64,000 nucleotides of DNA from an uncultured Planctomycetia bacterium (GTDB lineage Bacteria > Omnitrophota > Gorgyraeia > Gorgyraeales > Gorgyraeaceae): the NCBI GenBank assembly GCA_964566255.1, contig CAZMID010000003.1, positions 5,145 through 69,144 of the forward strand, given 5' to 3'. A program made the translations under genes and the position numbers. Below are positions 8,379-64,000 of the stretch, one piece after another (the first letter of the stretch is position 1; each line of letters begins with the position of its first letter). The notes below the pieces were generated by a model. It was given only the letters and a program-made list of their open reading frames with translations, did no database searches and was not told the origin of the DNA.

Positions 8379-8385
8379 TATCGTC

Positions 8386-8473
8386 TGGTGCCGAAGGTGG
8401 GAGTCGAACCCACACGAGGGGTTACCTCACACGATTTTGAATCGTGCGCGTCAGCCAATTCCGCCACTTCGGC
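8386..8473 (-). tRNA. tRNA-Leu (anticodon CAA), type II with a long variable arm
   Basis: Reverse complement: GCCGAAGTGGCGGAATTGGCTGACGCGCACGATTCAAAATCGTGTGAGGTAACCCCTCGTGTGGGTTCGACTCCCACCTTCGGCACCA. The anticodon loop is TTCAAAA. It has a long extra arm, a TTCGACT T-loop and an encoded CCA. Confidence 0.85.
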
Positions 8474-9433: not shown

Positions 9434-9437
9434 AAAA

Positions 9438-45677: not shown

Positions 45678-48600
45678 TTATAAACTAGCTCCTATTGTCC
45701 TAGGTTGTCTCTTAAATGTCATATTACCTGTGTCACTATAAATAGGCACATTCATCCTTTCTTCATGCAAGTCTTCAGCATCATATTCAGTTTCTGTCAA
45801 AAGATCTATTGGCAATTTAATTGTAATCTTTACATCACTATCACTACTATTAAAATTTGGCTTTCCAATGAAATCTTTCTTAAGTGCTGTAGCTCTTGAA
45901 GATAGTATTGATATAAAAGAAGATATTGCATTATTGGGTCTATTTAATCCTATTATAGAAGTAGTGATTGTAATAATGTCTTCCTTGCGTTCCGTACTTA
46001 TAGATAAAATTCCTTTTTCATTGACAATATTAGCAATGCCTTTTAAAAACATACAAATATCTTCAGATATATCAATATTATCTACATCTATTAAACCCAC
46101 TTTTTCATCTAGTGTTGTTTTTACTGTAAGCTGCGGATATAAGCTTTTTAAACCCTGCAATTCCAGTAGAAGGTCTCGATTTATACCGCTTTCTTTTTTC
46201 ATGAGTTCTCCTATATCTAGACCTTTCGCCATAGGTCTAATAGTCTTAGAAGGACCATATAATCTCTCTAAAACACCCTGAATATGTGCGGCAAAACTAT
46301 TTCCATTATTAAAGCTAGGATCTGTGTCATCTAAAACTTCTGAGAACGCTTCTGCCAACATCTGATCACGTAAATCATCTTCAAATCCATCATTATCTAC
46401 ATAGTCATCTTGACCATTATTTGAATCTTCAATCTTATACAGACTATCATCTACCATTCTATCAAAAAGAAAACTATCATTCCCATACTCAATATCTTTA
46501 AGTCCTATTGTCAGCAACAAATCTAGCTTAAATCCTCCTGCATTAATTATGGATGTTACGACTAAACGTTCTGCCTCAAAAAGAATCTGTGCTGGCGTAC
46601 CTTGGATATGGCTTTCGGTATATTTTGATAGTCTTAATCCAAGACTGTTAGATAGACGCTTTCTTTTGTTAGATGGTATATGATATTTGTACTTTTCTAT
46701 TAACTTTTCTATGACTGTCTTGTAATCCCTTGAGACGGCCAAGAATGTAAGAGATACATTGCCTGATTCAAGACATCTCTCTTGTATTAAACGAGCTATC
46801 TTTTTATGTAATTCATCATTACTGTTTAGCAATTTTCTTAAACCGACTATTTTATGTGGTCTGAATTTCGAATTATCCTCGGTCAAAAGTACTATCTTGG
46901 CATTGGGATTTCCATCTTGCCAATCTTTAAGACGCATTACAACCCAGGGAATGCCATTTTTTGTCCACAATACAACTCTTTCCCTTTTGAATATTTTGAC
47001 ATAATAGTGCTTTTTCTTAAAAGACTTGACATAACGTATGTAACCACTCTTTTTTAGAGGTTCACTGTATTCTATACGTATATTTCCTTTCGTAATCTTC
47101 TTGATTTCAGAAAATTCCGGCATAACCTCATTATAGGTAAACACTATTTTGCCTTCATCGTTGTAAATCCGATTGTATTCATACATCTTACAATAGCCTC
47201 TTCTTTTAATATAATCATCAAGCTTGGCGTATTTAAGAAGATAAAATTTTTCTTCAATATTTCCATCTTTTTCTTCGTTTACCTTTACAAACCATGCCAC
47301 TGTCTCTGTTCCTGGTGAAAAATCCTCATCTACTATATAATCGTCGTTAAAAAAGAATATCGCTCTCCTGTTATCTCCAACTTTCAACCCTCTAACTCTG
47401 ATTATACTCCTATTAGTAAGCTTTTTAAATTTTGAACTAATTTTTCCGCGAGCCTGGGTAGAAAAACTACCTATAAATTCATCTTTATCCTCAAGTTCTA
47501 CATCTACAGTTACAAACTCATCCTTTTTGGCTTCTGGATTTAATATTGAAGAAATACCAAAGGCCCCTGTCACATAGTTATCTTTGCCCTTGCGCCACAA
47601 TATTAAATTATCCTTTTTAAAGGAAGACACATATGCTTTTATATAGAAAAAATTGCCACCTTCATCTGTGGTGCCTCCTATTACTATATAAGTATCAGTT
47701 AATTCTATTTTTCTGTTCTTATGTGGAAATGTCTCATGTAGATCTCCTGCTTCATTAAAAATTTCTTCATATACTTTCTTTCCTCTTCCATCTATATCTG
47801 AAACAAATCTTATTACATCTCGCACATTCTTAGTCTTTCCTTCTCCAATTTTAATCCTTTGTATTAAAATACGCGTTTTTTCGCCAGGAGTACGAACTAT
47901 CCAACTAGTATCTCCATTTAACGAAAATTTCATCTTACGGCCTCCTGGTATTTTTCGACCCTCAACAAGTACCAAACCATGCTCCTCTAATAAGCTATCT
48001 AAAAATTCGTAAAAATCATTATTATTTATAGAACCTTCCCATTTATCCAAAAACTTCCCTGTCCTATAATCTACAAAGGCAATATTGTCTTCCTCAACGA
48101 TCTTTTTTCTTTTCTCGATATCTTTTTGGTCGGGTTCATCTAAAAAGCTTCCTTGTGGAATATCTGAAATCTCTATATCTAGTTCTGAAGATAACGTTAA
48201 AAGCGCTTGTCTTGCCTCTTCTGCTACCTCCAAGTTAACTCCTTCCATAAGCTTCTTTAAATGAGGAATAAATCTTCTGTCTTTTAGCTCAGTTACTTTT
48301 TGAATCAATTTTTCCATGGCTTTAGTAATTAGCGGATTTAAGCTGTTTATTAGGAACTTAAATTCATTGATTCTAGCTATGTACTTCTCTATTTCATCAG
48401 TTCCAGAAACATCTGGTTTTCTAATTACTGTTTTGCCTACAAATGCTGTCTGCGGTAATGCTGAACTATTAAACTCTTCTGAAATATTACTAGCTCCAAA
48501 TATAAAATAGCTTCTACTTTCTACCTCATTACGGATGTGTTTTGGTATTGAGTCCAATATTTCTTTTTCTCTTTTTTCCTTCCTTGCCTTATTTAGTGCT

Positions 48601-51600
48601 ATAGCCCAATGTACAATTGCCTTATTAAGATTTTTTTCATCAATACCGCTTTTCGTATAATAAATACTACCAAGTTTATAATATGCATCTACAGCATTAG
48701 ATTTTGATTTTATAGCCTCTTCTAGTGCTCCAATTGCCTTAGAGAAACTCTTTAACTCTTTGCAATCTATTGCATAATATGCACAGCCAAGATTATACCA
48801 AGCTTCTCCATATTTTTTATTGAGATTGGTTACTCGTTCAAGAATCCTAGCTGCCTCTTCAAATCTACATTTCTCTAAATAGACTCTTCCTATATTATTA
48901 AGTAACATCGGCATATACCCGTTCTTACTAGATTCATAATAATATCCTGCAACTCTTTCCTGCGTAATCTCAAAAACTTTCTCTTTATCTATTCCAGCTA
49001 GGTTCAAAAGCATATAAAATAGCTGAGCATTGGCAGCTAATAAAAGGTCTTTTTCTACTTTTTGCTTTTTAGTTTCATCGGATAGGCCCACACTTTGTAA
49101 TAACTCAAATATATCTTCATCCTTATCTATCAATGCATTTACCAAATGCCTTATAACAGGTTTTGGCTGGCCATTAGATAAATAATCATTTTCTTGTATT
49201 GATAACCAAAGATCATTAGGAAACTTTCTTAATAGATCATAATCACTTGCTCCTGAACTTTTTACTAAACTATAAAAATCTATATCTTTATCTTTGAATA
49301 ACTCTTCTACAATTAGCTCTGCCTTACCCTCAGAACAACCTAGATATTTTCTGAAAAAATCTTTCATGTATTCCTTCTGTTGATCTTCAGATTTATAAAC
49401 TACAGATTGATGGCTGAATGGATTTATTTTATATATTATTGAACTACAAGAAATAGATAGTAACAATAGAAAACTAATCATCATAGAAAAGATAGGATTT
49501 AAACCACCAATCCCTGCATATATAACATCAGGGAGATTATTTATAGGACTGGCTGCCTGAAACCACTGAAGGATAAATTGTATAGCTTCAGGAGATTTAA
49601 AACCTATAATTAAACCTACTATTATTAGTGGAATAATGGAACTTCTTAGTATCACTGAATTAGAAATAGTGGATTGCTTGAGAGATTTAGACCTTGATGT
49701 ATCAGCTTTATACGGCCTCTCAGGCGCTCCCATTAATTTTCTTAATTTCAAAAGTGCTTTTTCTTTAATTTGTCCTATCTTGTCTACTTCAAGCTCAAGG
49801 TCTAAGGCAATATCCTCCAAAGGCCTCTCTTGGATAATCGAATAGATAAGAATCTCCCTTTCTAATGGTGATAACTGCAATAACGCTGACTCTAATTTTT
49901 CCTCTCTATCTATCTTATCCAATAACTGGTCTTCCAGTTCTAATGAATCTGGATCAGTAATAAAGTTTTCAAGGCTCTCTGAATCTGAGTCAGATTCACG
50001 ATATTTAAAATTGCTTAAATAGACTGGATGTTCCTGACTCAATAATCCTATTACATATTCTCTAACTGTCTGAGGCCTAACTCCCATATATTCAGCTAAT
50101 CTTTCGATGTCTTTTTCAAATATTTCTGCCACACTATATATTTTTAAACTATTCATAGCCCTCTTTAGCTTCTTTATCTTACCCTGCATATGCGGTGGGA
50201 GCGGCATTGGTTTTTTAAGGCGGATATACTCTAAACATGCTGTTCTAATAAAATGTGGGGTATATGAGCTAAACCTCCCATATTGACTATAACGCAATCT
50301 GGTCTTTTGGGCTGCATCATATAAGGCAACTACCCCTGCATTTACCATATCTTTGAAGTCATGTTTATAATTTAAATAGGGACTACCATACCATTTTATA
50401 TATTGCTTAGCTATAATATTCGCTATATATAAATGACTTTCTATAAGTATGCGATTTGCTTCTTTTCCTAAATTCTCTGCCCTTTCATCATCTGACTTGA
50501 GATTGGCGTTTAATATCAAAATAATAAGCGCTTCCTCTTCCTCGATGCTTAATTTATGGTTATCTTCGTAATGCCAAATCTCTCCTATACCTTTTTTCTT
50601 ATAATCCTCAAATATAACCTCTGCCTTATCTACCTGCTGTCTTGTCGGGCCATAATGAACCAATATATACCTTTCTGGATCTCTTGCCTCAAAAATTCCC
50701 TTAAAACCCCTCCTATTAACATCAGGGTATTCTTTTAATAAAGCCTGTATTGCTTCATACGAAAATCCGCGCAATAGGCCTTTCCTCACTAACTGTGATC
50801 TAAATCCCAATAAATTATAAAGCTTGTTAATCTCTTCTTCTAAGGATGTAGCTAAACTATCAAAATCAAAACTGTCTTCAAAATCTTCATAGTCATCATC
50901 TAGAAGCAGCCTAGATTGGGTCTCAGTCAAGATATTATTTCTTGCCATCCTTTTAATTTTAGGATTACGTTCCTTTTCTTTCCAGGTAAATAAAAGATTA
51001 ACAAAATCATCAATAAAGCGTTCTGACGTAAAACCATCTAGGTTATATAATGTCTTTTTCAGCCGTTCATTTAAACATGCCTTAAGGGACTGCTTAATCC
51101 CTTTTGTTAAGACCTTTTTCCTCTTGGCCAATTTTGCCAATAACATAGTTTCGTACCTATAAGTAACATTTTTATTCCAAATGTTCGTAAAATCATCCTT
51201 CAGTGCCTGTAGGCTTTTTCTAGAATCTAGTATTATCCCTGAGGCCTCTTGCACTTTTAGATCATGATATATCGGCCTATACCCAAATTGACTTTCTGAA
51301 TCAAGAGTGCAAAGGACTGCTTTCTGGATCCAGTATTTTGTGTTTTTAGCAAATTGATCTAACTTCATTGAAAATCTAAAGCTTTTCAATTCTTCCAACT
51401 CTTCCAATAAAGCCTTTATTTCTTCTAATGTCATTGCGCTATCAATAGAATCCCTAAAAGAATCTATCTGTTCTCTAAACTCACTAACTTCTATCTCTTT
51501 TCTCATAAGTAAACCCTGATACGCTTCTGCTATTTCTTTTATTTTTTTATTTATTTCTACCTCATCCAGATTAGATTCAATAAATAAATGGAAGGTAATT

Positions 51601-54600
51601 ACTGGTGGCAATCCTTTTATTCTAGCTAATTTTAATAAGTCTTGTATCTTTTTCTCTATGCTATTCCCATTATATCTGATTAAATCACAGATTATATACT
51701 TTGGAAGGTTGTACTTAGTAGCTAAATCACTAATATTGTCGCTTAATGCTTCAAAATCTCCTATTTCAAAACCATCTTTTATAAGAACAGTGATCAGTGA
51801 AATAGGTAATTTATATGTAGCGCTAATCCTCTTTGAATTATATGAAATCTTTTTAAGGACTCTCTCAAAATCTGCATATTTCTTAATTACATGAATCAAA
51901 GTAGATCTTGAAACTCCGTATTTCTCCATAAGCTCCTTAAATGCAGTAAATGTGAATCCTTTGAGAAGAAGCATGTGTACATGATTTTCTATAAATGGTT
52001 TAACAGTCTCATCACCTTGTTTAAACTCCTCGATTGCCTTTTTAACCCCTGCACCAAACCCTTCTATATCAAAAAACTTCTCTACCTTATAAAGCGTGTA
52101 GTTCCCAGGATTCCTTAGAATCTTCCAGCTATTGGCACTTAACAGATAATTTTCCATGAAGTTCTTCTTTAAAAACTCTTCTCTTTCTCTTGTAATCTTC
52201 TTATTTGTCAATTTTCCAATTAAGTCTTTAGCTACTTTCTTCTCAATCCCAATATTAATTAAAGAATCTACTAAAAACTGTGAGTTTTCTAATCTCCTCT
52301 TTTTAGATAACGCATGCTTAGCCAGATACCTCTCCATATGATCGGTTTTACATGCCTTAAATATCAATGATTTTGTAGCGTTGTATTTCTCCTTCAAACC
52401 TAAATAAGACTCATAAGTTAAGCCTCTATAAAGCATCCAGCTATAGTACAACTCTGTAAATGCATTATCCTTAAATATCTTTCTTTCCTCTTTTAATCTA
52501 GATACGAATCTTGTCATGCCTTCCTCTCTCCAATGGCCAGAAACTATTTTCTTTACATCTGATCTAGTCAGAAATCTGTTTCTAGTAAAATTCTTTAGTG
52601 ACTCGAGGTGTAATTCTGAACTCTGGTAAAAATTAAATATACTATTAGTGATTTTCTTGGAGAAATCCATACTAAAACTATTTTCTAATAAAAGCTCTCT
52701 GAGTTCTTCCTTTAAAACGGCATTTGGTATAGGAGGCATTTCTATTAATGGTTTTATCAGTTGTTTCTTTTTTTCTTTTATTAATCGTGGTTTACTAATT
52801 CTACTATCTTCAGCTTCTATCTGGCGCTTGACTTTAATCTTCCCAGTATCTTTTGTAGAAACCTCTAAGCTAATAATCTTAGCATCTTTTAAGAATTTAA
52901 TAGTTTTAGGCAAGCCATTTTTAAATTCAACTTCCACCCACTCATTTGCATAGTTTGAAAATTTCGTCCAATAGATACCTATTTCTAGTTCACCTGCACC
53001 TCCCAACTGATGTAAAATAATATTATCCTTTAATTCTAAAAGTCTCTTTTGAGGGAATTTCTCAAATGAATCTATGATATTTCTTTTAGTATCCAGGATT
53101 AAACTTAAGTCTTTAGCTAGAAATATCTTTCCTTCCTTAATAAGTCTAGCCTTTACCACGATTCCATTAATGACATAAGCCTTTACGTCATCATGCTTCG
53201 GAAATTTACTAAAGTTAGCCCAATTCCTTCCTCCAAGATGTAGGTTCCCGTCTCCATCAAGGTGATGATGTTTTATTACTGCTTTCCTCAGGCCAGCCAA
53301 TCTTTCTTTTTTCATCCCTATAAAAGAATCTACTTCTTTCCTCTTATTTAAATCTACTAAGATAGAAAACTTTCTAATAATACCATCCTTTATAAACTTC
53401 ACTTCTCTTGGTAATCCTTTTCTAACTATAAATTCTACTTCTTCATTTTGATAGAGAGAAAATCTTGCCCAACGCTTGCCGCCAATATGTAATTCACCAC
53501 CATCACGCAGATAAAATCTTTTAATCGTTACATCCTCTAATTTGCTAAACTTAGACCTTCCGTAGCTATCGTAGAATGTTTCAATTAACTGACCGGTCTT
53601 ATTATTCCAAATTTGAGAAAATTCAACCACTAAGTCATCCTCTAAGAATTTAACCTTATCAACAAAGTCTCCCATCATAGTAACTTCAACTAAGGCATTT
53701 GCTCTTTTGCTAAATCTAGCCCGTTTCGTACCATCTATCCACAACCCCCCAGTTTTACCAAGTTGCATTCTTATAACTCTCTCTTTCTTAATCTTTATTA
53801 TTGGTCGCTGAAACAATGGAAGAACTGTTGCACTGTTATATATAGGTTCTATAACTTTTGAAAACATTTCACCTTTTTGTGAAAGAAAATCCCTAGCAGG
53901 GACATTTGAAAGATGTCTCCTCTTTTTTAACTTCACTGATTGGAATGTTTGTTTATTTGGTAGAATAAGTGGGACGGCCCCTCCGACAGGTTCAGATGAA
54001 GACAAGGTTTCATCTCTCTCGCGTCCCACCCACTTGACAATAAGTAAAGTAGTCAAAATTAAAGCAATAGTTATTCCCAATGGCCCCAAGAGAGGAGATG
54101 CAATAAGTACACCGGCCTTTCCAACAGCTGCAAATAAAGTACCTGGCAAAAAGATAGCAGCTAATATACTCGCAGCAATACTAAGCTTTCTGAAACTCCC
54201 TGTAGTTACTAAACTAAGCTTTTCTTTTTGCTGCTGGTTAGGCCTATCCTGGTCTTTATCTATTCTCTGGCCATGAAACTCTGAATCTCTCTTTATATCC
54301 TGGCTACCCTTAACATTCTCAGTTCCACTCCTGACAGCTTCAAGTTTTTCTTTGGCTTTTCCAAGGCGCACCGTGTAATAAAACCTCTTTCCCTCTTCAA
54401 AGACAATATTATCTACAGCCTTTTCTGCTCTCTTAAGAGCCTCCTCGGCTTTATTTAAATCAAGGTCTTCTGTTTTCTCAATATATTGAAGGGCCTTTTC
54501 TAAAATGCCAATCTGTCCATTAGTATATCCATTAGCAGCTGCGCGTAAAGATTCATAAGATTTCCTAAATCCTACGACCCTATCGTCATATTCCAAAAGG

Positions 54601-57600
54601 CCTCCTATAACATTTTCTTCAACAGCCATAGCTAATCTATGTGCCTCTCGCAGGATTTTCACATCTAAATTCTTGATATCTTTCAAAGCGATACTTGCTT
54701 TTTCAATGGCCTTCTTGGCCTTATTGATATACGTAGCCCTAAAAACAATCTGGTCTAATTCAGCAATCCTATCATGAACATATATTGAATCCTGTTCTGA
54801 GCGAGCACGAGCTATGTACCAAGATAGATCAAGTCCTCTCCTGACAGCATCCAACTGGCCATCATTAATATTGTCAAATTTGCAAAGCTTGTAGGTCTCT
54901 TTAACAATCTCTTCAAAGTATTTCCTTAGAGGTACTTTTTCTAGAAAAGATGCCTTGTCCAACTCTGTAGAATGTTTGACCACCACCCTATCTATGTAGT
55001 CCTCATAGTTAGACATTATTATCTTTACATATCTCTGAGTCTCTCGGAACGGAGGAATATTATTGCCATACTCTTCAATTCTATGAGGACCTGCATTATA
55101 TCCTCCTACTGCCAATCTAATGCTTTCGAATCTTTCTAACAACATTGCAAAGTAATGAGTCCCTCCTCTCGTATTCTTATATGGGACATAAACATCCCCA
55201 TCTGTCCAATTCACTCCTAAATCTTCTCTTATATCTTTCCATGTATCTGTAGAAGGATTATCCGGCGTTGACCTGATCTGCATAGCTCCTTTTGCATCTT
55301 TATGGCTAGTGGCCATAACCCTAACACTACCCTTAATATAACTTTCTTGAAGAATCATAAACCATGTAAATGCTGTAAATTTTTCAAGGCTGCCAAAATG
55401 TCTCTTCAATGTAGAATAAGTCCTCTCATCATCCCATGTATCCTCTACTCCTCTTCTTATTTCATTCTCAAAACTATAATCCTCTAGCCTTGTCCCTGAA
55501 TTAGCGCCATAAGCAACATTGCTAGCCACAAAACCTTCATTTGTAAAATGAGGTGATAGAGGTACAAATACCAAGAAGCCTACGAATAATACACTCATTA
55601 ACTTCTTCAGAGAAATCCTACTACCAATCCTTCTCCTATTCTCAGGCCTTATAGAAATAGAAAATAGAGAGCTATTCCCTTGCTTGAAGCTATTCCTTAT
55701 AAATATACTGCCTATTGCAAGTAAACCTAAAGCAATTAGTCCAGGTAGCCCAAAGTGTGTAAATATGATTGTAAGAATACCTATTGACAGAATTCCAGAA
55801 ACAGCAACCTTTTCAGTCTTCTCAGATTTTATAGCACTAGATATCTTATCTACTAAAGGAACATGATATCTTGCCATTATTTCTTCTATAGGGGTGTTTC
55901 TAGAAAGTGTTTTTTCTTCAAGTTCCTGCGGTGTTAAAGAGCCATGAAGCTCTACTTCTTTAACCTTTTCTATTTTGTTAAATTGAGCACGTTTATTTTC
56001 GCCTTGATCTAATGGGCTATACCAGGCCTTTGAACCTGAATGGACTGAGATTTGCTCTATATTCTTTAATGTAGCCTTGGACACTGGAAAATCAGATATA
56101 GGTATTTCAACCATACCATTTTCAGGTATAGTATATTTTTTAGGACTCCGACCAATATCAGCTGCACCCATTGCCTTATCTTTTAATAGCCTTACAAATA
56201 TATTTGTTCCAGATTGATTTCTTGGGAAGGTTATGCGTAAAGACTTTGCATCTGACAAATCAAATAGACCATCTACCCAGCAGGAATAAGCATCTCCACC
56301 AGGCCAACTTCCACTTATTCCCCAGGCAATCGCTTCTACATCTATCTTTAACTTAATTTCTTTTTTGGGTTTTGGTGCAGTCTTCTCTTCCTGAATCGGA
56401 AATTTAATTACCTTTCTGGTTTTTGGCTTTACAATATTTTCTGCTGCTTTTTCTGTAACTCTAATAAGTCCTGGGATTTCTCTGGCGCCTAATGAAAATG
56501 GATTAAATCCTAATTCTACTAATCCCATCCATGCTGTAGACGCAGTACTTAATACGCCTCCTGCAGCAAACCAGCCATGTCCAGTAGGAGCCCTTCTATT
56601 AGCATAAGGGTAAGCTATTTCTTCTCCGATCTGAACAGCCATTGTCTTCATATGGGCATACATTGTAACAGCGTCTTTTTCACATTCTTCCGCCCAATCT
56701 GGATGAGATTTTGAATAATAATCAGCTAAAATAGCACATGCCTCTATAGCACCTGCTGTCCACTCAACACTCTTTATACCATTATCTCCTCTATCAGTAA
56801 AATCAACTGCTATAATATTACCATTATCATCAAATATTCCAGCAAGCTCTTTTGATTCTTTCCATAATCTGTATGAGGTACCATCACCAAACCATTTATC
56901 TATTATATCTGCACCTAATACATCTATTGCCCAGGTCTGACAGTCTGTTGCAAAAATAGGATTAACTATCCATTCCCCCTTATCTTCATCATAGTGCATA
57001 CCTTGATTAAATACGCCTCTTTCAGAATCAAAACTTAGTTTAAGATATCCTGCTACATTATCCATTGCTTTCTTATAAGTAGTCTTTCCTGTAATTTCAT
57101 AAAGCATCCTGAATGCGGCATACCATGATAGATTATTCTCTGTTGAAATCTCATCATACATCCATTTATATCTAAATGGATTTTTACCAGGTTCTTGTGG
57201 AGACCATGTACCTTTAGGAGCCATACGTATACCACCATTTTCAGCTTGCAGGAAAATAGCTGCCCTTGCAGTCTCTTCTGCAAGTTGCATCTCTATAGCA
57301 TCTGGTAAATATTCTTTTCCATTCTCCTTAAAATAAATCTGTAATGGCCCTAAGACTCCTGCCCATGCATTCTCACCTGCTACTGGCTGCCACTGGCTCC
57401 ATTCAACTGTATTTCCTGCAAGAGGGTCTTTTAACTTCCAATGACCAAAGGCATTGATAATCTTAAACCTAAAACCCCTCTCGCCCTTCCAATAAGAAAT
57501 CTTACTTCTACCTTTATCACTATAAACAAATGGTGATTTTGATGCATGTAATTCACGAAGGTCTCCCAATGTGCCCCTCCACATAACATCAACCAATAAT

Positions 57601-60600
57601 TTTGCTGGTCTTAAGTCCCCTGTAAGGGCCTGGAATATTTGCGCAACACCTCCGTCATATATTACAAGTCCTTCTTTTAGAACCGTTCTTTCGTGTACAT
57701 TCTCAGATTCTTCCCAAATCGATTCCAGCCTATCTCCTGGTACCTGAAAGCTTAAGATAACCTTTGTATTATCTGCAACATTATTTTCAAGCCAGTTACC
57801 AATGCCTTTAATGGTTTTTTCTGATGCGATTGAAGTAGAAACTCCCATTAAAAACACTATAACTACAGAAGCAGTAAGCGAGGCGACCTCTCCGAAGGTA
57901 GGACTTGACAAGGTCAGACCATTTTTGCGCCCCGCCTGCTCGTTTCCTGAAAACGTTTTCTTTTTTGGTGAAACAAAAAGCACTTCAGTTGAATTTAAAT
58001 CTTCCCTCTCTAATTTTACAGAGTTAAATGTTGATCTATTTCTAATTACACGATTTAATATTGATTTTATTGGGGATATATATGCCTTTATTTCGCTTGG
58101 TTTCTTGTCATGTGCTATATCTTCAAGGTGAGCTTGTTCATGGGTTAGAAGTTTTTTCTGGAACCACTTAGGTATTAACTTCATTAAATCTTTATTTACA
58201 TAAAGTGTTCCATCTGGGGAAACATAGGATGGGTCTTTTGATGTAGAATCATCTTTACTAGATGCAAATTCTTCTATAAGACCAAAGTCTGGGCCTCGTA
58301 TTACACCTCTCTTAACAAAATAATGAATTATATTTACAAAAGCTATAAGACTGGTCTGTAATAAGTAGAATGTAACAGCGATAAGGCCTGGCAAAGATAA
58401 TAGTGCTATACCAATTGTAGCTACTATCGGTATATCTGAAGATGCACCATAGGCAATAAATGAAGGAGCAAAAAATGTTATTAAGCCTGCAAAAAATGAT
58501 GTTAAAGAACCTATTAAAGAAACAGAGGATTTTTCTTTACCTAACTTACCGACAACATTTTGATTTATTGTTTCTTTAATCTCTCCAGTATTCAAATCTT
58601 TTATTAAAAGAGGGCTGTAATCATCTGCATTAGAAAAATATACAAAATTAAGCTCATCAAGTTCAAACTCTCCTTTTGCTATATCTTGACATTCTTCCAA
58701 TATTTCAAGAAATCTTTCATAGTCTTCTGGTTCTTTATGTATATATCCTATAGAAATATGTCCTAGAAAGTTTCTTCTTGATGTGCTAGTATGCTTATTT
58801 ATAGCTTGATTTAAATCTAAAACTCTATTTAATTCTTCGGGCTCTGAAAATCTTACAAGTACGGAAATAGTCCTCTTTAACCCAATCTCACCTATTAAAA
58901 CTTTTATCTTCCCTGGGGTACCTATATCTTCAAAAGAATTTCTTAATTGTTCTAACCTTTCCTCATATTGTTCCCTGGTAACACCAGTTTTTGCACAATC
59001 ATATTTCTCACTTGGGTCTACATCGCATATTGTCATATGAAAAGTCTCGGGCCTAAGAAACTTAACACTATCCCCTAATCCTTTTCTCTTTAATTCATCT
59101 TGTAAATCAATTAATAGCCTAGACAACTTATTTTCTTGCCCTACAGGAGCAACACATGTAAAACCAGAGAAGGCCAGTAAATTTCCATGCTTATCAATTT
59201 TCTCTCCTCTACCGAAATGTGCTACACTATCAAAAGGTTTGCCCTTATATTTAGTAATAGTTCTGCCTTTCAATCTACTGTTATAAGTCTCGAATTTATT
59301 AATACCTCTTTCAACCCTGCCAAGTTCAAGTGCAACTTCCTTCACACTACGATCTTTTACCTTTAGGGTCTTAAATAAATTGCGCAGCATCTCTTTATTC
59401 TTCTCATCGATTTTTACTTTCAACATTACTCTGAATTCAATATCGCTCATTGCCTTATTTAGTGAATCACCGATATAATGTCCAAACCCCTTAGATAAAT
59501 CAATAGCTATAGTTAAATAACCGCTCTTTTTAAAATCCTCTACTATAGCCTTCAATCCTATTAACATAGACCTTAAAAACTCACTCTTCTCTTTTCCAAT
59601 CAAATTATCAATAGCATCTATATCGATTCCATTGGATATTAAATATTCATAGAATAACTTATATTTATCACCTTCATAATAAAGCTGCATGGCTGCTAAT
59701 CGTTTTGCGGCTTCCATGTCATCCGGATTGGCCATATATTCATCTTTTAAATATGCCAATTGTAATAGGTCTTCATACTCTCTCTCTGTAAAGTGGCCAT
59801 ATTCCTTAAGAAGCAATGCCTTTAATATAGTTATATAACTTTCATTATCCTGGTTATTAAACACTCCTCTTAAGAATACAGGGTGTATTTGCAATATCCT
59901 CCTTTTAATCTTTCCATTCTTTCTGTTTAAAATGAACCTTATAGCCATTATAGGATCGCCAGGCTCATCTGAAAAAACCACATCTTCCAGCATATCCTCA
60001 ACACCTATCTCTTTTGCCTTGCTATGCAAAAATTCTATCTCACTAGCAGTAGGTCTAATCTGGGTCTCAGCTATTCCAGCTATACAGTGAGAAACCTTAC
60101 TAAGGTAATTCTCTATCCTTCTATTTAACTCATTTGGATTATTTATGACTGGGATTAACTGTCCTTCTATGAAATCTCTGAAATAATAACCTGATTTAAA
60201 AGCAGGGTTTACTTCTTTTAAATATCCTGCTACTTGTCGTTGTTTATTGAGATTTATTAATAATTGATGGAGCTTGAGGTCCTGTAGGATAAGGTCATGC
60301 TCTTCTTGTCTTTCTTCTTGTTCTGTGCCAACTGTATTATTATGGCCTAATTCATGGAAAAGCCTTTCAGCAAGGATTATTCTTGTAGCTTCAGGATAAA
60401 TATTATTAGAAGCCAATAATGCTCTTATAAATTCCTCTCCTAAGATTATTTCAACCTGTTCTGTCTTAGAATTATAATATCTTACTGTATTTATTGGGAG
60501 CTTTGAATTTACTCTTATTACAATAGGAGGGGCTCTATTATCCTGACTGTTTAAAAGATCCTGTAAATATATGCTCAATTTAGTATCATTTTTTACTAGA

Positions 60601-63600
60601 TTTTCTATTAAATCAAGCGAATCATTTAAAAACGCTGCCAAATCTCCTGCCTCACTGCCTGTAGGAGTAAATCTCTGGCCTTTAGCCTGAGATAAATCAA
60701 GCCTTGCCTCTAATGAATCTACAAAATTACCTTCCAGATCAGAATACTTTACAGTATGGTCTGTGGGGGCAAAGGTTTTTACAGTGCTTTCTCTTAATAA
60801 TATAGTCTTAAGGTTATTCCATATAAACCCTTTTATGAGATTCTCCCAGAATAAATCTGCAATTATAAAGTAAGGTATTGCAACTAAGAAATGAATCAAT
60901 GCTTTTATAATTGAGATATTTAAGATAGGGAGACTGGTTACCAAGTCAACATAATCTACGAATGCCTTTTTCTTGCCTTCTAAGATCTTTAACCTTGCCT
61001 TAAAAGGCTTTAGGCCATATCTAAAGGAATCCTTCACAGAAAAACCATTATGCATGAATGGGCCTAGTATCAATGCAAATGGAAACACATAGAAGAAAAA
61101 CTGTGCTATTACACCCCAAGGATGCATAGGTGCAACTAAGAATATATTTAACAATAAAACTCCCCATTTAATAGATTCGCGGAATTTACCATATAGGGAG
61201 GCAAATGACTCAGTTGAATATTTAACATCCTTTGCACCTCCTATAAAAACTCCGCTATTACCGCCAAGAGCATCTATTGTCTTCTGAGCATCATTTGGAA
61301 CAAGCGACAAGAATGTTAATACCAGACTCCAAAACCTCATTAGGTATAGGCCATAACCCTTCAAAAATCCATATTCTTTTACAAGTTTTCTTACGCCTCC
61401 TGCTGCTATTGCCTGTGCAAATACATATTGCATAGATATAAATAATAAAGGAATAGACAGATATGCAAAAGGTGTAAAGGATACAAAGAATGCAAACGAG
61501 TAAATCATGAGGTTATAGCGTGGTATAATCACCTGATTTATATAATGGTCATCATTTGCAAGCAATGTGAATTTTTCTGCCCAGTGCATAATCTTACTTT
61601 TCAAAAGCTGCTGGAAGTGAATACTTATATTGTTATCAATTATTAATCCTCCGAACCTATTTACAAAAGATGGCATACCGCCTTGCGTCTTTTCCCTGCC
61701 TCTGCCCATTGTTATACCAGGCGCATAATCTGCCTTATAACCTGCCTTTAATATCTCTTGAGCAGTCATAGAGTCTTCTATCTTACTTGCAGGAACGCCA
61801 AAATCCCTCATTGCTGAGAGGCGCACAATGCCTGGACCATACATGGCTGGAGTGCCAGTCCTTGTCTCAGAAGGAATTAAGCGGGTATTGAATACATCTT
61901 CTGCTATCTCCTGGTCTTTCGCAGTAGGTGTCATACCTTGGTCAGCATCCCTGAGGTCAGTACCCACTATACCTAAATCAGGTCGTTGGGTGAAATCCCA
62001 TGCAACAAAAGGAAGCATGAATACATCAACTGGGAATATAGTATGTTCCCAGTCAGTATTGAATATGACTGCGTCTTTTTCGCCTGCTAAATGCCTCAAG
62101 GCATGTGTCCAGTTATCAACTTTATATCCCCAGCCAGAATGAAATTCAGAATCAGGAGGCACACCAAATCCAGCTATTGTTGCAAGGTGTCTTTCAGGGC
62201 AACCTTCTCCAGCTCCTTCCCCTTCTTTTACCCAGCTGCCTTCCTGCCACCCGAGTTCTTTTAAGTCTTCCATCATAACTGGGCCATTAACCTTACCAGC
62301 AAGCTCAACTTGATAACTAAACATACCCTGATAATATTCAAGTATCTCTTCATCTGTCGGATTACGGTCAAGTTCCATTACATGTTTTAAGAATATCCTG
62401 TATGCTACAAGGGATGATTCGTGAGCAGTCCTTACTGTCTTCTCCACGTTATCAACCCTAAACAATACCCACTGATGGATAATCTGGCGTGAAAGCATGA
62501 TTTCAATAAGGAGTTTTCTTAATACTTCGTCATCTTGTATGCTTGAGAAATCTCCTGCTCCAAAATCCGTATTGTATTTCTCTGACAACATTGCACGATC
62601 TGGATTTGTAATATGCTTAAGTTCTATCTCGAGGTTTTGCAAAATTGTATCTCTGGACATTGCATTAAAATCATATCGTGCAGACATAGGATTATCTCCA
62701 TCATGTCCCAAAGGTAAAATACCATATTCCAACATCCCTTCTAATGTATCTTCAAAACTCATGTAAGGGTCGCTAAACTTTTTAATAAAGGCCTTTTTAG
62801 CATCTCCAGTTAAATTACCTAATCCTGCAAGATAATCAAGGTATGATAACCAATCACCTCTATATGCCTCTTTAATTATCCTGAAAGGTGTTTTTATGTC
62901 TCCACCGCCTTTTCCTTCTGGATGAGGAGTATCATCATCCAAAGAGATCCTTGTAACCACAGCAAACTGCTTCCAGCTAGTCACCTTGGTTATTACCCTT
63001 AAAAGCTGACCTGGGTTTGTTCGTATAAATTCCTTTATATCTTGAAATTCTTCTTTGCTATAAAGATTGACCTTATTAAAGAATTCTACGATCTTCTTTT
63101 TTGCACGAGGGTTCTGGATATCTGCAGCATCAGATAATGCTTTCCCCTTACCTAATGCCTCCCTAAGTCCTTGTGCCTCCTCTTCAGTAATCATGCGGTA
63201 TTTTAACAGCGTTTCATTTATTAGGATCTCATGATATACGTCAGTCAAGTAAGGATCATTCTTTATCTTTTCAATATCACTCTGTTTTATCTGGTTATAT
63301 GAATTTATATCCTTCCAGTGACCTTGTTTTTCAAGCGCATGTATTACTGCTTCTGATAACAGATGCCACCAGCTGCGTAACGATACCATAGCATTTAAAA
63401 AGAGGATTATAGAACCAATACCAAGCCCTATTAAAGGCAAGACCCCCCATGAATATAATACACATAATACTGTCAATACCGCAAATGTCCCGACCCATAA
63501 TGTGGCAAGTATTTTAAAGAACCTTACCTTCTCGCTTATCCTTTCCTGTGCTTGCGGGTCAGTTCTACCAATATATTCCTTGCTTGCTTCATAGATATCT

Positions 63601-64000
63601 ATCAATCCTCCTATCCTATACTTTACAAAGAAAGCAACTATTGGAGCTGTCTGGACTAGTTGCCACCCGAATAACAACGCGAATGGTGCGCTCCATATTA
63701 AGCTTATTAGGCCTCCTGGAGTCATAGCAAGTAATACATTTAATGCAATAACAAAGGCTGCTGTGCCTATTTTCAGTAACTTGCGGCTTTGGGTGCCTTG
63801 TGCAAATACATGAGGAAATGTATATTGTCTATAACCATCAGCTTTGTATTTAGCTTTCAAATATTTACGTATAGGATCAAGAATGATGTTGTCTCTATTG
63901 TCTTCCTTTGTTTTCTTAATATCTTTGGAGTCCTCTTTCCTGTTTACTATATCTTTCCTTACATCAACAAGTAATCCTCTAAGATCTAATTCAGGTCTTT
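45678..64000 (-). CDS. Giant multidomain membrane protein, 5'-partial. The ORF tracker starts it at a TTG at 63860, but the frame stays open with no stop through to 64000, so the gene probably begins beyond the window. The C-terminus and stop are at 45678.
   Basis: It is 6,060 codons from the TTG, plus about 47 further open codons to the window edge. I counted and checked several embedded modules at the nucleotide level: transmembrane clusters, two HExxH motifs, a 2H phosphoesterase, an SLT domain, four ~80-aa repeats, sigma-70 regions 2-4 and TPRs. Confidence 0.8.
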   Translation of the reverse strand, partial: RPELDLRGLLVDVRKDIVNRKEDSKDIKKTKEDNRDNIILDPIRKYLKAKYKADGYRQYTFPHVFAQGTQSRKLLKIGTAAFVIALNVLLAMTPGGLISLIWSAPFALLFGWQLVQTAPIVAFFVKYRIGGLIDIYEASKEYIGRTDPQAQERISEKVRFFKILATLWVGTFAVLTVLCVLYSWGVLPLIGLGIGSIILFLNAMVSLRSWWHLLSEAVIHALEKQGHWKDINSYNQIKQSDIEKIKNDPYLTDVYHEILINETLLKYRMITEEEAQGLREALGKGKALSDAADIQNPRAKKKIVEFFNKVNLYSKEEFQDIKEFIRTNPGQLLRVITKVTSWKQFAVVTRISLDDDTPHPEGKGGGDIKTPFRIIKEAYRGDWLSYLDYLAGLGNLTGDAKKAFIKKFSDPYMSFEDTLEGMLEYGILPLGHDGDNPMSARYDFNAMSRDTILQNLEIELKHITNPDRAMLSEKYNTDFGAGDFSSIQDDEVLRKLLIEIMLSRQIIHQWVLFRVDNVEKTVRTAHESSLVAYRIFLKHVMELDRNPTDEEILEYYQGMFSYQVELAGKVNGPVMMEDLKELGWQEGSWVKEGEGAGEGCPERHLATIAGFGVPPDSEFHSGWGYKVDNWTHALRHLAGEKDAVIFNTDWEHTIFPVDVFMLPFVAWDFTQRPDLGIVGTDLRDADQGMTPTAKDQEIAEDVFNTRLIPSETRTGTPAMYGPGIVRLSAMRDFGVPASKIEDSMTAQEILKAGYKADYAPGITMGRGREKTQGGMPSFVNRFGGLIIDNNISIHFQQLLKSKIMHWAEKFTLLANDDHYINQVIIPRYNLMIYSFAFFVSFTPFAYLSIPLLFISMQYVFAQAIAAGGVRKLVKEYGFLKGYGLYLMRFWSLVLTFLSLVPNDAQKTIDALGGNSGVFIGGAKDVKYSTESFASLYGKFRESIKWGVLLLNIFLVAPMHPWGVIAQFFFYVFPFALILGPFMHNGFSVKDSFRYGLKPFKARLKILEGKKKAFVDYVDLVTSLPILNISIIKALIHFLVAIPYFIIADLFWENLIKGFIWNNLKTILLRESTVKTFAPTDHTVKYSDLEGNFVDSLEARLDLSQAKGQRFTPTGSEAGDLAAFLNDSLDLIENLVKNDTKLSIYLQDLLNSQDNRAPPIVIRVNSKLPINTVRYYNSKTEQVEIILGEEFIRALLASNNIYPEATRIILAERLFHELGHNNTVGTEQEERQEEHDLILQDLKLHQLLINLNKQRQVAGYLKEVNPAFKSGYYFRDFIEGQLIPVINNPNELNRRIENYLSKVSHCIAGIAETQIRPTASEIEFLHSKAKEIGVEDMLEDVVFSDEPGDPIMAIRFILNRKNGKIKRRILQIHPVFLRGVFNNQDNESYITILKALLLKEYGHFTEREYEDLLQLAYLKDEYMANPDDMEAAKRLAAMQLYYEGDKYKLFYEYLISNGIDIDAIDNLIGKEKSEFLRSMLIGLKAIVEDFKKSGYLTIAIDLSKGFGHYIGDSLNKAMSDIEFRVMLKVKIDEKNKEMLRNLFKTLKVKDRSVKEVALELGRVERGINKFETYNSRLKGRTITKYKGKPFDSVAHFGRGEKIDKHGNLLAFSGFTCVAPVGQENKLSRLLIDLQDELKRKGLGDSVKFLRPETFHMTICDVDPSEKYDCAKTGVTREQYEERLEQLRNSFEDIGTPGKIKVLIGEIGLKRTISVLVRFSEPEELNRVLDLNQAINKHTSTSRRNFLGHISIGYIHKEPEDYERFLEILEECQDIAKGEFELDELNFVYFSNADDYSPLLIKDLNTGEIKETINQNVVGKLGKEKSSVSLIGSLTSFFAGLITFFAPSFIAYGASSDIPIVATIGIALLSLPGLIAVTFYLLQTSLIAFVNIIHYFVKRGVIRGPDFGLIEEFASSKDDSTSKDPSYVSPDGTLYVNKDLMKLIPKWFQKKLLTHEQAHLEDIAHDKKPSEIKAYISPIKSILNRVIRNRSTFNSVKLEREDLNSTEVLFVSPKKKTFSGNEQAGRKNGLTLSSPTFGEVASLTASVVIVFLMGVSTSIASEKTIKGIGNWLENNVADNTKVILSFQVPGDRLESIWEESENVHERTVLKEGLVIYDGGVAQIFQALTGDLRPAKLLVDVMWRGTLGDLRELHASKSPFVYSDKGRSKISYWKGERGFRFKIINAFGHWKLKDPLAGNTVEWSQWQPVAGENAWAGVLGPLQIYFKENGKEYLPDAIEMQLAEETARAAIFLQAENGGIRMAPKGTWSPQEPGKNPFRYKWMYDEISTENNLSWYAAFRMLYEITGKTTYKKAMDNVAGYLKLSFDSERGVFNQGMHYDEDKGEWIVNPIFATDCQTWAIDVLGADIIDKWFGDGTSYRLWKESKELAGIFDDNGNIIAVDFTDRGDNGIKSVEWTAGAIEACAILADYYSKSHPDWAEECEKDAVTMYAHMKTMAVQIGEEIAYPYANRRAPTGHGWFAAGGVLSTASTAWMGLVELGFNPFSLGAREIPGLIRVTEKAAENIVKPKTRKVIKFPIQEEKTAPKPKKEIKLKIDVEAIAWGISGSWPGGDAYSCWVDGLFDLSDAKSLRITFPRNQSGTNIFVRLLKDKAMGAADIGRSPKKYTIPENGMVEIPISDFPVSKATLKNIEQISVHSGSKAWYSPLDQGENKRAQFNKIEKVKEVELHGSLTPQELEEKTLSRNTPIEEIMARYHVPLVDKISSAIKSEKTEKVAVSGILSIGILTIIFTHFGLPGLIALGLLAIGSIFIRNSFKQGNSSLFSISIRPENRRRIGSRISLKKLMSVLFVGFLVFVPLSPHFTNEGFVASNVAYGANSGTRLEDYSFENEIRRGVEDTWDDERTYSTLKRHFGSLEKFTAFTWFMILQESYIKGSVRVMATSHKDAKGAMQIRSTPDNPSTDTWKDIREDLGVNWTDGDVYVPYKNTRGGTHYFAMLLERFESIRLAVGGYNAGPHRIEEYGNNIPPFRETQRYVKIIMSNYEDYIDRVVVKHSTELDKASFLEKVPLRKYFEEIVKETYKLCKFDNINDGQLDAVRRGLDLSWYIARARSEQDSIYVHDRIAELDQIVFRATYINKAKKAIEKASIALKDIKNLDVKILREAHRLAMAVEENVIGGLLEYDDRVVGFRKSYESLRAAANGYTNGQIGILEKALQYIEKTEDLDLNKAEEALKRAEKAVDNIVFEEGKRFYYTVRLGKAKEKLEAVRSGTENVKGSQDIKRDSEFHGQRIDKDQDRPNQQQKEKLSLVTTGSFRKLSIAASILAAIFLPGTLFAAVGKAGVLIASPLLGPLGITIALILTTLLIVKWVGRERDETLSSSEPVGGAVPLILPNKQTFQSVKLKKRRHLSNVPARDFLSQKGEMFSKVIEPIYNSATVLPLFQRPIIKIKKERVIRMQLGKTGGLWIDGTKRARFSKRANALVEVTMMGDFVDKVKFLEDDLVVEFSQIWNNKTGQLIETFYDSYGRSKFSKLEDVTIKRFYLRDGGELHIGGKRWARFSLYQNEEVEFIVRKGLPREVKFIKDGIIRKFSILVDLNKRKEVDSFIGMKKERLAGLRKAVIKHHHLDGDGNLHLGGRNWANFSKFPKHDDVKAYVINGIVVKARLIKEGKIFLAKDLSLILDTKRNIIDSFEKFPQKRLLELKDNIILHQLGGAGELEIGIYWTKFSNYANEWVEVEFKNGLPKTIKFLKDAKIISLEVSTKDTGKIKVKRQIEAEDSRISKPRLIKEKKKQLIKPLIEMPPIPNAVLKEELRELLLENSFSMDFSKKITNSIFNFYQSSELHLESLKNFTRNRFLTRSDVKKIVSGHWREEGMTRFVSRLKEERKIFKDNAFTELYYSWMLYRGLTYESYLGLKEKYNATKSLIFKACKTDHMERYLAKHALSKKRRLENSQFLVDSLINIGIEKKVAKDLIGKLTNKKITREREEFLKKNFMENYLLSANSWKILRNPGNYTLYKVEKFFDIEGFGAGVKKAIEEFKQGDETVKPFIENHVHMLLLKGFTFTAFKELMEKYGVSRSTLIHVIKKYADFERVLKKISYNSKRISATYKLPISLITVLIKDGFEIGDFEALSDNISDLATKYNLPKYIICDLIRYNGNSIEKKIQDLLKLARIKGLPPVITFHLFIESNLDEVEINKKIKEIAEAYQGLLMRKEIEVSEFREQIDSFRDSIDSAMTLEEIKALLEELEELKSFRFSMKLDQFAKNTKYWIQKAVLCTLDSESQFGYRPIYHDLKVQEASGIILDSRKSLQALKDDFTNIWNKNVTYRYETMLLAKLAKRKKVLTKGIKQSLKACLNERLKKTLYNLDGFTSERFIDDFVNLLFTWKEKERNPKIKRMARNNILTETQSRLLLDDDYEDFEDSFDFDSLATSLEEEINKLYNLLGFRSQLVRKGLLRGFSYEAIQALLKEYPDVNRRGFKGIFEARDPERYILVHYGPTRQQVDKAEVIFEDYKKKGIGEIWHYEDNHKLSIEEEEALIILILNANLKSDDERAENLGKEANRILIESHLYIANIIAKQYIKWYGSPYLNYKHDFKDMVNAGVVALYDAAQKTRLRYSQYGRFSSYTPHFIRTACLEYIRLKKPMPLPPHMQGKIKKLKRAMNSLKIYSVAEIFEKDIERLAEYMGVRPQTVREYVIGLLSQEHPVYLSNFKYRESDSDSESLENFITDPDSLELEDQLLDKIDREEKLESALLQLSPLEREILIYSIIQERPLEDIALDLELEVDKIGQIKEKALLKLRKLMGAPERPYKADTSRSKSLKQSTISNSVILRSSIIPLIIVGLIIGFKSPEAIQFILQWFQAASPINNLPDVIYAGIGGLNPIFSMMISFLLLLSISCSSIIYKINPFSHQSVVYKSEDQQKEYMKDFFRKYLGCSEGKAELIVEELFKDKDIDFYSLVKSSGASDYDLLRKFPNDLWLSIQENDYLSNGQPKPVIRHLVNALIDKDEDIFELLQSVGLSDETKKQKVEKDLLLAANAQLFYMLLNLAGIDKEKVFEITQERVAGYYYESSKNGYMPMLLNNIGRVYLEKCRFEEAARILERVTNLNKKYGEAWYNLGCAYYAIDCKELKSFSKAIGALEEAIKSKSNAVDAYYKLGSIYYTKSGIDEKNLNKAIVHWAIALNKARKEKREKEILDSIPKHIRNEVESRSYFIFGASNISEEFNSSALPQTAFVGKTVIRKPDVSGTDEIEKYIARINEFKFLINSLNPLITKAMEKLIQKVTELKDRRFIPHLKKLMEGVNLEVAEEARQALLTLSSELDIEISDIPQGSFLDEPDQKDIEKRKKIVEEDNIAFVDYRTGKFLDKWEGSINNNDFYEFLDSLLEEHGLVLVEGRKIPGGRKMKFSLNGDTSWIVRTPGEKTRILIQRIKIGEGKTKNVRDVIRFVSDIDGRGKKVYEEIFNEAGDLHETFPHKNRKIELTDTYIVIGGTTDEGGNFFYIKAYVSSFKKDNLILWRKGKDNYVTGAFGISSILNPEAKKDEFVTVDVELEDKDEFIGSFSTQARGKISSKFKKLTNRSIIRVRGLKVGDNRRAIFFFNDDYIVDEDFSPGTETVAWFVKVNEEKDGNIEEKFYLLKYAKLDDYIKRRGYCKMYEYNRIYNDEGKIVFTYNEVMPEFSEIKKITKGNIRIEYSEPLKKSGYIRYVKSFKKKHYYVKIFKRERVVLWTKNGIPWVVMRLKDWQDGNPNAKIVLLTEDNSKFRPHKIVGLRKLLNSNDELHKKIARLIQERCLESGNVSLTFLAVSRDYKTVIEKLIEKYKYHIPSNKRKRLSNSLGLRLSKYTESHIQGTPAQILFEAERLVVTSIINAGGFKLDLLLTIGLKDIEYGNDSFLFDRMVDDSLYKIEDSNNGQDDYVDNDGFEDDLRDQMLAEAFSEVLDDTDPSFNNGNSFAAHIQGVLERLYGPSKTIRPMAKGLDIGELMKKESGINRDLLLELQGLKSLYPQLTVKTTLDEKVGLIDVDNIDISEDICMFLKGIANIVNEKGILSISTERKEDIITITTSIIGLNRPNNAISSFISILSSRATALKKDFIGKPNFNSSDSDVKITIKLPIDLLTETEYDAEDLHEERMNVPIYSDTGNMTFKRQPRTIGASL
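48576..48893 (-). other. TPR-like repeat block inside the giant protein at about aa 4990-5095
   Basis: …RFEEAARILERVTNLNKKYGEAWYNLGCAYYAIDCKELKSFSKAIGALEEAIKSKSNAVDAYYKLGSIYY…. Confidence 0.5.
49725..50468 (-). other. sigma-70-family module (regions 2.1-2.4, 3 and 4) embedded in the giant protein at about aa 4465-4712
   Basis: …ANRILIESHLYIANIIAKQY… matches region 2.1. …DMVNAGVVALYDAAQKTRLRYSQYGRFSSYTPHFIRTACLEYIRLKKPMPLPPHM… matches regions 2.2-2.4/3.0 (compare RpoD GYKFSTYATWWIRQAI…IRIPVHM). …LSPLEREILIYSIIQERPLEDIALDLELEVDKIGQIKEKALLKLRKL matches region 4.2. Confidence 0.75.
52791..53753 (-). repeat. four tandem ~80-aa protein repeats of unknown fold inside the giant protein at about aa 3370-3690
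   Basis: The recurrent pattern is G.LHIGG..WA.FS……V.V.F..G.P…KFIKDG…. The four copies start GGLWIDGTKRARFS, GELHIGGKRWARFS, GNLHLGGRNWANFS and GELEIGIYWTKFS. Confidence 0.6.
55011..55418 (-). other. SLT-family lytic transglycosylase domain inside the giant protein at about aa 2815-2950
   Basis: …FMILQESYIKGSVRVMATSHKDAKGAMQIRSTP… carries the catalytic ES and the GxMQI motif. …AVGGYNAGPHRI… carries the AYNAGP motif. E2839 is encoded at 55344-55346. Confidence 0.75.
58701..59228 (-). other. 2H phosphoesterase (LigT/CPDase-like) module inside the giant protein at about aa 1545-1720
   Basis: Two H-x-T/S-x motifs lie about 93 aa apart: …ETFHMTICDV… and …NFLGHISIGYI…. Confidence 0.5.

Follow-up and report, generated by a model that had tools for sequence, protein, structure and literature searches.

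The 64,000-nucleotide stretch analysed here (the window; contig CAZMID010000003.1, positions 5,145 to 69,144) carries on its minus strand an open reading frame (ORF) of 6,060 amino acids, in which two short histidine motifs raise the question of whether a giant membrane protein harbors a phosphoesterase of the 2H superfamily, to which branch such a domain belongs, and what it may do there. Members of this superfamily act by metal-independent acid-base catalysis, in which two histidines work on 2',3'-cyclic phosphates, 2'-5' linkages and related esters (PMC5512222). An initial annotation of the DNA had pointed to the motifs FHMTI and GHISI within positions 58701-59228. The only long ORF spanning this range is the minus-strand frame at 45678-63860, and the argument turns on the following features.

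45678-63860, minus strand: giant ORF of 6,060 amino acids with a TTG start, which hosts the 2H module
59028-59042, minus strand: motif 1, FHMTI, residues 1607-1611, opening the beta-strand at positions 76-81 of the structure model
58749-58763, minus strand: motif 2, GHISI, residues 1700-1704, opening the beta-strand at positions 169-175 of the model
58560-59303, minus strand: complete 2H module of the DUF1868/Atu0111 clade, residues ~1520-1767, delimited by homology and the structure model

Translation of the minus-strand ORF yields both motifs exactly as first described, with His1608 and His1701 separated by 93 residues, a spacing within the range of roughly 80-100 that characterises the superfamily. 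The strict pattern H-hydrophobic-[ST]-hydrophobic occurs only twice in the 6,060 residues, both times in this motif pair, and 2.7% of 2,000 shuffles of the protein produce at least one strict pair spaced 60-130 residues apart; the looser pattern H-x-[ST]-x has 13 occurrences in the giant protein. The bare pattern is moderate evidence, and it is the profile matches, the conservation within the family and the predicted fold that take the case beyond chance.

These lines of evidence make it virtually certain that the segment is a genuine 2H-fold domain of the DUF1868 clade with its catalytic residues intact. Residues 1501-1779 match the Pfam family PF08975 (2H-phosphodiest, DUF1868) with 26.8 bits and an E-value of 5.7e-6, above the gathering cut-off of 21, and the match persists at 22.0 bits on a 3,000-residue piece of the protein. 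The PF08975 model has 116 positions covering the first lobe only, and the window sequence matches positions 2-59. LigT_PEase (PF02834), which the initial annotation had named as a profile to try, scores 21.3 bits against a cut-off of 23.3, and TIGR02258 of NCBIfam gives a weak match over the second lobe (20.4 bits, cut-off 65.7). Since the module falls below both thresholds, it is not an orthologue of LigT/ThpR or of the cyclic phosphodiesterases (CPDases).

A word-indexed homology search with the domain returned no relatives. Exhaustive scanning of 1.84 billion representatives with HMMER yielded 70 homologues at E <= 1e-3, with 39 at <= 1e-10 and 9 at <= 1e-30. In an alignment of 37 homologues His1608 and Tyr1706 are invariant, and Gly1566, Thr1610, His1701 and Phe1742 are conserved in at least 90% of the sequences. 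The family consensus reads ...SFHMTI...GHISLAY..., motif 2 of the window copy stands in the context GHISIGY with Tyr1706, and both motifs are conserved across 37-51 homologues. A single-sequence search of the PDB with the module gave only noise (ISG15, E 0.4). Atu0111 of Agrobacterium tumefaciens (PDB 2FSQ) was matched by the profile of the 37 homologues over practically its full length (E 1.2e-20): positions 5-217 of the profile pair with residues 26-239 of the protein, FHMT with LHMT and GHISLAY with FHITLSY. The profile also matched the Pyrococcus 2'-5' RNA-ligase-like proteins 1VDX (E 1.8e-7) and 2FYH (E 2.4e-7), and in all three alignments the two HxT/S motifs coincide with the catalytic ones of the solved protein.

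The AlphaFold2 model built on the 37-sequence alignment has a mean predicted local distance difference test score (pLDDT) of 94.5, with no residue below 70, and a predicted template modelling score (pTM) of 0.90. It shows the two-lobed architecture anticipated by the initial annotation, with a repeated beta-alpha arrangement in which each motif histidine starts a beta-strand. In a Foldseek search of the PDB the 44 highest-ranking matches are all 2H proteins, the best being 2FSQ (E 2.4e-9, template modelling (TM) score 0.70), followed by others such as 1VDX, the Arabidopsis CPDase, AKAP18, Thermus TT0787, Usb1, YjcG, a phage phosphodiesterase and E. coli LigT, the last with a TM score of up to 0.76 normalised by target; mouse hepatitis virus (MHV) ns2 ranks 32nd. 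Among predicted viral structures (BFVD), DUF1868 proteins of giant viruses match best, and models of Acb1 appear at ranks 42 and 48 (E ~2e-3). Alignment to solved 2H proteins, together with these fold matches, suggests that the two histidines would face a single cleft. Membership of the 2H superfamily, as first proposed, is thereby borne out by the PF08975 score, the profile matches to 2FSQ, 1VDX and 2FYH, and the fold.

Within the superfamily, the module is by its sequence signatures a member of the DUF1868/Atu0111 branch and not of the LigT branch. It shares with Atu0111 a full-length profile match, the best structural match, the F-H-M-T motif, the H-I-[ST]-L-[AGS]-Y motif including its tyrosine, and an N-terminal F-x-G-x-T strand, and the free-standing homologues of the module likewise pass PF08975. 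Identity to Atu0111 in the structural alignment is 13%, and unlike that protein, which is a free-standing polypeptide of 243 residues, the window copy is internal to a 6,060-residue membrane protein. The LigT/ThpR proteins (E. coli 5LDI, P. horikoshii PH0099 1VDX) share their fold and both HxT/S motifs with the module, with TM scores of 0.71-0.76 normalised by target, and are the best-understood model for the chemistry. The module is ~60 residues longer than they are, and after motif 2 the archaeal LigT-like proteins 1VDX and 2FYH carry arginine (HITLGR) where the window family carries tyrosine. Nor is the domain close to the viral phosphodiesterases that act against signalling (Acb1 and the 2',5'-phosphodiesterases of the ns2/VP3 type), as it has no PHROGs match and Acb1 and ns2 rank low structurally.

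Homologues align across query residues ~20-232, and many free-standing ones share an N-terminal helix of the form Y-x-x-R-L-x-x-R-x-I, present in the window copy as ETYNSRLKGRTI immediately ahead of the domain. In size, the module thus corresponds to a whole free-standing protein. The range first assigned to it, residues 1545-1720, holds both motifs and cuts off about 25 N-terminal and about 45 C-terminal residues of the domain. Guanine-plus-cytosine (GC) content is 32% in the module and 35 +/- 3% in the gene; as this lies within the range of the gene, a recent horizontal insertion of the module was rejected.

The window copy is one of many. At least 15 further long or giant ORFs, most of them from Omnitrophota, contain the module. 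The locus search used an 8-sequence alignment, the 37-sequence alignment being too diverse for it. On contigs from one genome per species it is part of open frames that take up all or almost all of the DNA retrieved, with lengths of more than 6,800 residues in two Omnitrophota metagenome-assembled genomes (MAGs), more than 3,000 in an Omnitrophota single-amplified genome, and more than 4,300 in L001 (CAYPYS010000001.1), which bears the doubtful label 'uncultured Planctomycetia'. In the same material it stands alone, as a protein of ~260-265 residues, in Chlorobium, Chloroflexota and Synechococcales (cyanobacteria). Metagenome contigs carry it in frames of 662, 1,395, >2,680, >4,479 and >6,890 residues, besides some twenty further free-standing copies. 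The longest of these frames occupies the whole 20.7-kilobase locus L028 (Ga0080064_1000534), with an intact 2H module and 66% GC, so the arrangement also occurs outside low-GC genomes. Nearly all of the 37 further loci retain both motifs. In a rough neighbour-joining tree without support values, most embedded copies group with the window copy, beside a clade of free-standing proteins. Some giants hold two 2H copies: P0020 has a tandem (residues 1606-1808 and 1857-2065) in which the second copy lacks the second histidine, and the L001 frame has copies at residues 759-982 and ~3353-3622.

Several of the domains that accompany the module elsewhere are predicted nucleotide enzymes. NUDIX domains are found in four of the long carriers (P0001, P0006, P0016, L015), cytidylate kinase and GDPD in L015, adenylate kinase in L026, an NTP-transferase in L013, and Maf and an ARMT1-like phosphatase in P0021; glycosyltransferase domains also occur among the carriers. 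The nucleotide-enzyme partners fit a role in nucleotide handling. A distant member of 1,086 residues, P0061, combines a PRK/uridine-kinase domain (62-219), the 2H domain (~400-620) and a YheCD-type ATP-grasp domain (846-958), a layout reminiscent, by analogy, of kinase-CPDase-ligase enzymes of RNA healing and sealing. The free-standing genes have as neighbours a TIR protein (Chlorobium), glycoside hydrolases (Chloroflexota) or NdhN (cyanobacteria). In the Chlorobium MAG (L004) a gene for a TIR_2 and Prok-E2_E protein (8505-9578, plus strand) lies directly upstream of the free-standing DUF1868/2H gene (9893-10666, plus strand), and a 1,313-residue PPDK-like/radical-SAM fusion is encoded downstream of it.

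The giant protein has ~14 hydrophobic segments in a hydropathy scan, and the module lies within a soluble stretch of ~770 residues (1010-1778), bounded by hydrophobic segments at 971-1009 and 1779-1798, the second of which begins a hairpin.

58326-58526, minus strand: hydrophobic hairpin, residues 1779-1798 and ~1808-1845, starting 15 residues after the module

Both ends of the soluble stretch and the sequence after the hairpin are rich in lysine and arginine, and the hairpin loop has neither residue, which by the positive-inside rule would place the module on the cytoplasmic face. A cytoplasmic location is also what the other carriers suggest: most free-standing homologues have hydrophilic N-termini and no signal peptide, and the domains found beside the module in other giants are those of ordinary cytoplasmic enzymes. 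A transmembrane hairpin following the module was considered as a constant feature and rejected, as it is present in the window protein and P0016 and absent from most giants.

On this evidence we consider it likely that residues ~1520-1767 are, taken as one statement, a complete and probably active 2H domain that acts as a cytoplasmic, membrane-tethered phosphodiesterase on nucleotides or RNA ends. Because the catalytic residues are all intact and conserved, 2H chemistry is the best-supported mechanism, and a membrane-tethered enzyme is proposed because 15 residues separate the domain, itself within a long soluble stretch, from the transmembrane hairpin that follows. The two H-x-T/S motifs, on strands adjacent to each other in two pseudo-symmetric lobes, would line one cleft; of the two histidines one would take the part of general base and the other that of general acid, with the threonine and the serine holding the phosphate and no metal taking part. 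The bond opened would be that of a 2',3'-cyclic phosphate, or of a similar 2'-linked phosphodiester, carried by a nucleotide or by the end of an RNA. A whole gene product that elsewhere stands alone (~260 residues) would thus have been built into the multi-enzyme giants of Omnitrophota, here to work at the cytoplasmic membrane, anchored to its inner face, possibly in nucleotide clean-up or salvage. The term 'RNA end-processing' used in the initial annotation is an inference, since the module belongs to the DUF1868/Atu0111 branch, for which no substrate is established.

Several points weigh against such an enzyme. The DUF1868/Atu0111 clade, although represented by a structure solved in 2006, is without a known substrate, and a literature search on DUF1868 found no papers. 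The entry 2FSQ is itself listed as 'unknown function' (PMC3290555). The shared cleft for the two histidines derives from alignment and not from the coordinates of the model, and the topology derives from a hydropathy scan and lysine/arginine counts, with an ambiguous number of transmembrane segments between the module and the periplasmic SLT lytic transglycosylase domain; published work describes the topology of such Omnitrophota giants as hard to settle. The co-occurrence with nucleotide enzymes may reflect the many domains that giants carry anyway. The gene neighbourhoods of the free-standing homologues are inconsistent and have no common partner. Several embedded copies lack a catalytic residue, among them the closest homologue, P0001/L003 (GKIGL), and degenerate motifs are seen in P0007 (FYMTV), P0027 (GKVTF), P0040 (LHMRI and GYISL) and the second copy of P0020, so the fold can persist without catalysis. 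Nor do the motifs fix activity: AKAP18, in which both are retained, was initially known for binding nucleotides.

The degenerate copies, and the presence of AKAP18-type 2H domains among the structural matches, could also be read as signs of a non-catalytic ligand-binding or scaffolding domain, which would bind a nucleotide or RNA end, or serve as a structural spacer, without turnover. The degenerate copies are few, however, a small minority found mostly in long proteins or fragments, and the window copy keeps all four catalytic residues, each of them invariant or at least 90% conserved in the family, which makes this account unlikely. If the domain is catalytic, it might instead be an end-healing enzyme of RNA repair, opening 2',3'-cyclic phosphate ends that metal-independent RNases leave behind, ahead of the resealing of broken tRNA or rRNA. 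The profile matches to archaeal 2'-5' RNA-ligase-like proteins and the kinase (P-loop, PRK family)-2H-ATP-grasp layout of P0061 speak for it, and the role of 2H enzymes in RNA repair has been reviewed (PMC5512222). Yet a motif scan and Pfam revealed neither a Walker A motif nor any recognisable ligase or kinase domain in the giant protein, no RNA ligase was seen near the free-standing homologues examined, and the score lies far below the LigT/ThpR equivalog threshold, so that a dedicated repair enzyme is improbable.

Omnitrophota include host-dependent or predatory cells, and phage Acb1 and viral 2',5'-phosphodiesterases degrade nucleotide second messengers. The domain might then be an effector in conflicts between organisms, exposed outside the cell or released from the giant protein, that degrades the RNA or the nucleotide second messengers of host or prey cells. 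The peptidoglycan-cleaving SLT domain in the same protein, the TIR-domain gene adjoining one free-standing homologue and the unsettled topology are compatible with it, and the 2H domains of polyvalent proteins have been proposed to counter nucleotide signalling (PMC5512222). Against this, PHROGs gives no match, Acb1 models rank no higher than 42 among viral structures, the family is mostly devoid of signal peptides, the lysine/arginine distribution favors the cytoplasm and the partner domains are ordinary cytoplasmic enzymes; we regard such an effector as very unlikely. A broader proposal, in which the DUF1868-type 2H domain is a recurrent part of Omnitrophota giants that handles the nucleotides of a host or prey, for salvage or for defence suppression, also appears quite unlikely. 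For salvage, it would open 2',3'-cyclic nucleotides derived from RNase-digested foreign RNA and pass them to the kinase and NUDIX modules of sister giants; for defence suppression, it would destroy the nucleotide alarm signals of the victim. Were this proposal true, the orphan DUF1868 clade would acquire a first function, and the enzymology of giant proteins would be linked to the host-dependent lifestyle of the phylum.

The preferred reading, a tethered phosphodiesterase inside a giant protein, has precedents for its architecture. The initial annotation had called the fusion of the 2H domain to other modules unusual; it is less so than it looked, as comparable ones exist in Omnitrophota giants and in polyvalent proteins. 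2H domains occur in the polyvalent proteins of phages and of plasmids or conjugative elements (Iyer et al. 2017, PMC5512222), where, as here, they are fused to unrelated enzymatic domains without an RNA ligase partner. Unlike those, the window gene is chromosomal and lies among housekeeping and transport genes. A phage or plasmid polyvalent protein was rejected as an identity for it, as no phage or conjugation genes were found among the 20 flanking ORFs scanned and neither the module nor either flank has a match in PHROGs.

Giant proteins of Omnitrophota have been described as tilings of unrelated enzyme domains, dozens in number (Nielsen and Lui 2026, bioRxiv 10.64898/2026.06.07.730766), and multi-enzyme giant membrane proteins of the phylum were also described by West-Roberts et al. 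2023 (bioRxiv 10.1101/2023.11.21.568195). The window protein resembles them in phylum, in its many transmembrane segments, in the occasional SLT domain and in its mostly unannotated sequence, and the starch-synthase, GT1, NUDIX, GNAT, methyltransferase and HEAT content of other 2H-module carriers is typical of them. At 6,060 residues it is shorter than the 10,000-residue survey cut-off and so outside the published length definition, and whereas the surveyed giants hold many unrelated enzyme domains, only SLT, 2H and TPR are above or near threshold in it. The text of the two giant-protein papers, supplementary tables aside, makes no mention of phosphoesterase, LigT or DUF1868.

The result is a useful annotation and an entry point to an orphan enzyme family, and it is no new type of system. 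It gives a confident label to ~250 residues of an otherwise almost wholly unannotated protein, and reveals that the orphan DUF1868/Atu0111 branch has been taken up repeatedly into Omnitrophota giants. As it folds independently at high confidence, the module is an easy target for expression and assay, and a substrate found for it would annotate the free-standing family (cyanobacteria, Chlorobium, Chloroflexota, giant viruses) as well as the giant-protein copies.

Elsewhere in the giant protein three further features can be placed.

55062-55316, minus strand: SLT lytic transglycosylase domain, residues 2849-2933, Pfam 30 bits against a cut-off of 21.3
60042-60782, minus strand: HELGH block with LAERLFHELGHNN, residues 1027-1273, in the soluble stretch that also holds the module and upstream of it
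58128-58142, minus strand: second HExxH motif, HEQAH, residues 1907-1911, after the transmembrane hairpin

Pfam recognises SLT, 2H-phosphodiest and TPR in the protein, which agrees with the peptidoglycan-lytic module noted initially. The sigma module noted beside it does not reach the Pfam cut-off: Sigma70_r4 scores 22.8 bits against 24.1 at residues 4659-4708 (49737-49886, minus strand), and a further Sigma70 region 4 match scores 21.2 against 25.7. SecA-DEAD and dockerin domains were not detected by Pfam. Two HExxH motifs are present, of which LAERLFHELGHNN looks zincin-like from its residues; the surrounding block is ~44% identical in two other 2H-carrying giants, P0001/L003 and P0026, and the P0026 giant is collinear with the window protein across the N-terminal 1,650 residues, 2H module included. 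The AlphaFold2 model of the block, made from a three-sequence alignment, is poor (pLDDT 59.6), and Foldseek returned nothing significant for it, the weak matches including the zinc proteases BlaR1, MATCAP, CapP and ZMPSTE24. Soluble residues 1010-1520 (59301-60833, minus strand) have no match in Pfam, PHROGs or PDB sequences, nor have soluble residues 2014-2685 (55806-57821, minus strand), of which the PHROGs search covered a part, and most of the giant protein is still without annotation.

The window as a whole contains ~40 genes, and all substantial non-nested ORFs (368-63860) are on the minus strand, as are both tRNA genes, Ala-GGC and Leu-CAA, at 8305-8473. The coding strand is richer in G than in C, the plus strand having 14.2% G and 21.5% C. 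The genes code for LeuRS, MnmE, PurH, YchF, a Mur-type ligase, two AcrB-type pumps, a TolC-like protein and an ABC sugar-uptake system. The best named homologues of the window YchF are all from Candidatus Omnitrophota/Omnitrophica, with 59-71% identity against ~40% outside the phylum, which places the window in an Omnitrophota genome. The window LeuRS sequence is also found on the Joint Genome Institute (JGI) metagenome contig Ga0118720_1000964.

Two of the transport proteins have additional domains. The TolC-like outer-membrane efflux protein (30478-32307, minus strand), with OEP repeats, carries an N-terminal TonB_C domain at residues 72-137 (33.9 bits). One AcrB-family pump (25611-29264, minus strand; 1,217 residues) has an extra C-terminal stretch with an HTH_DeoR domain at residues 1154-1197 (E 8.8e-6), an odd fusion on a transporter of the resistance-nodulation-division type.

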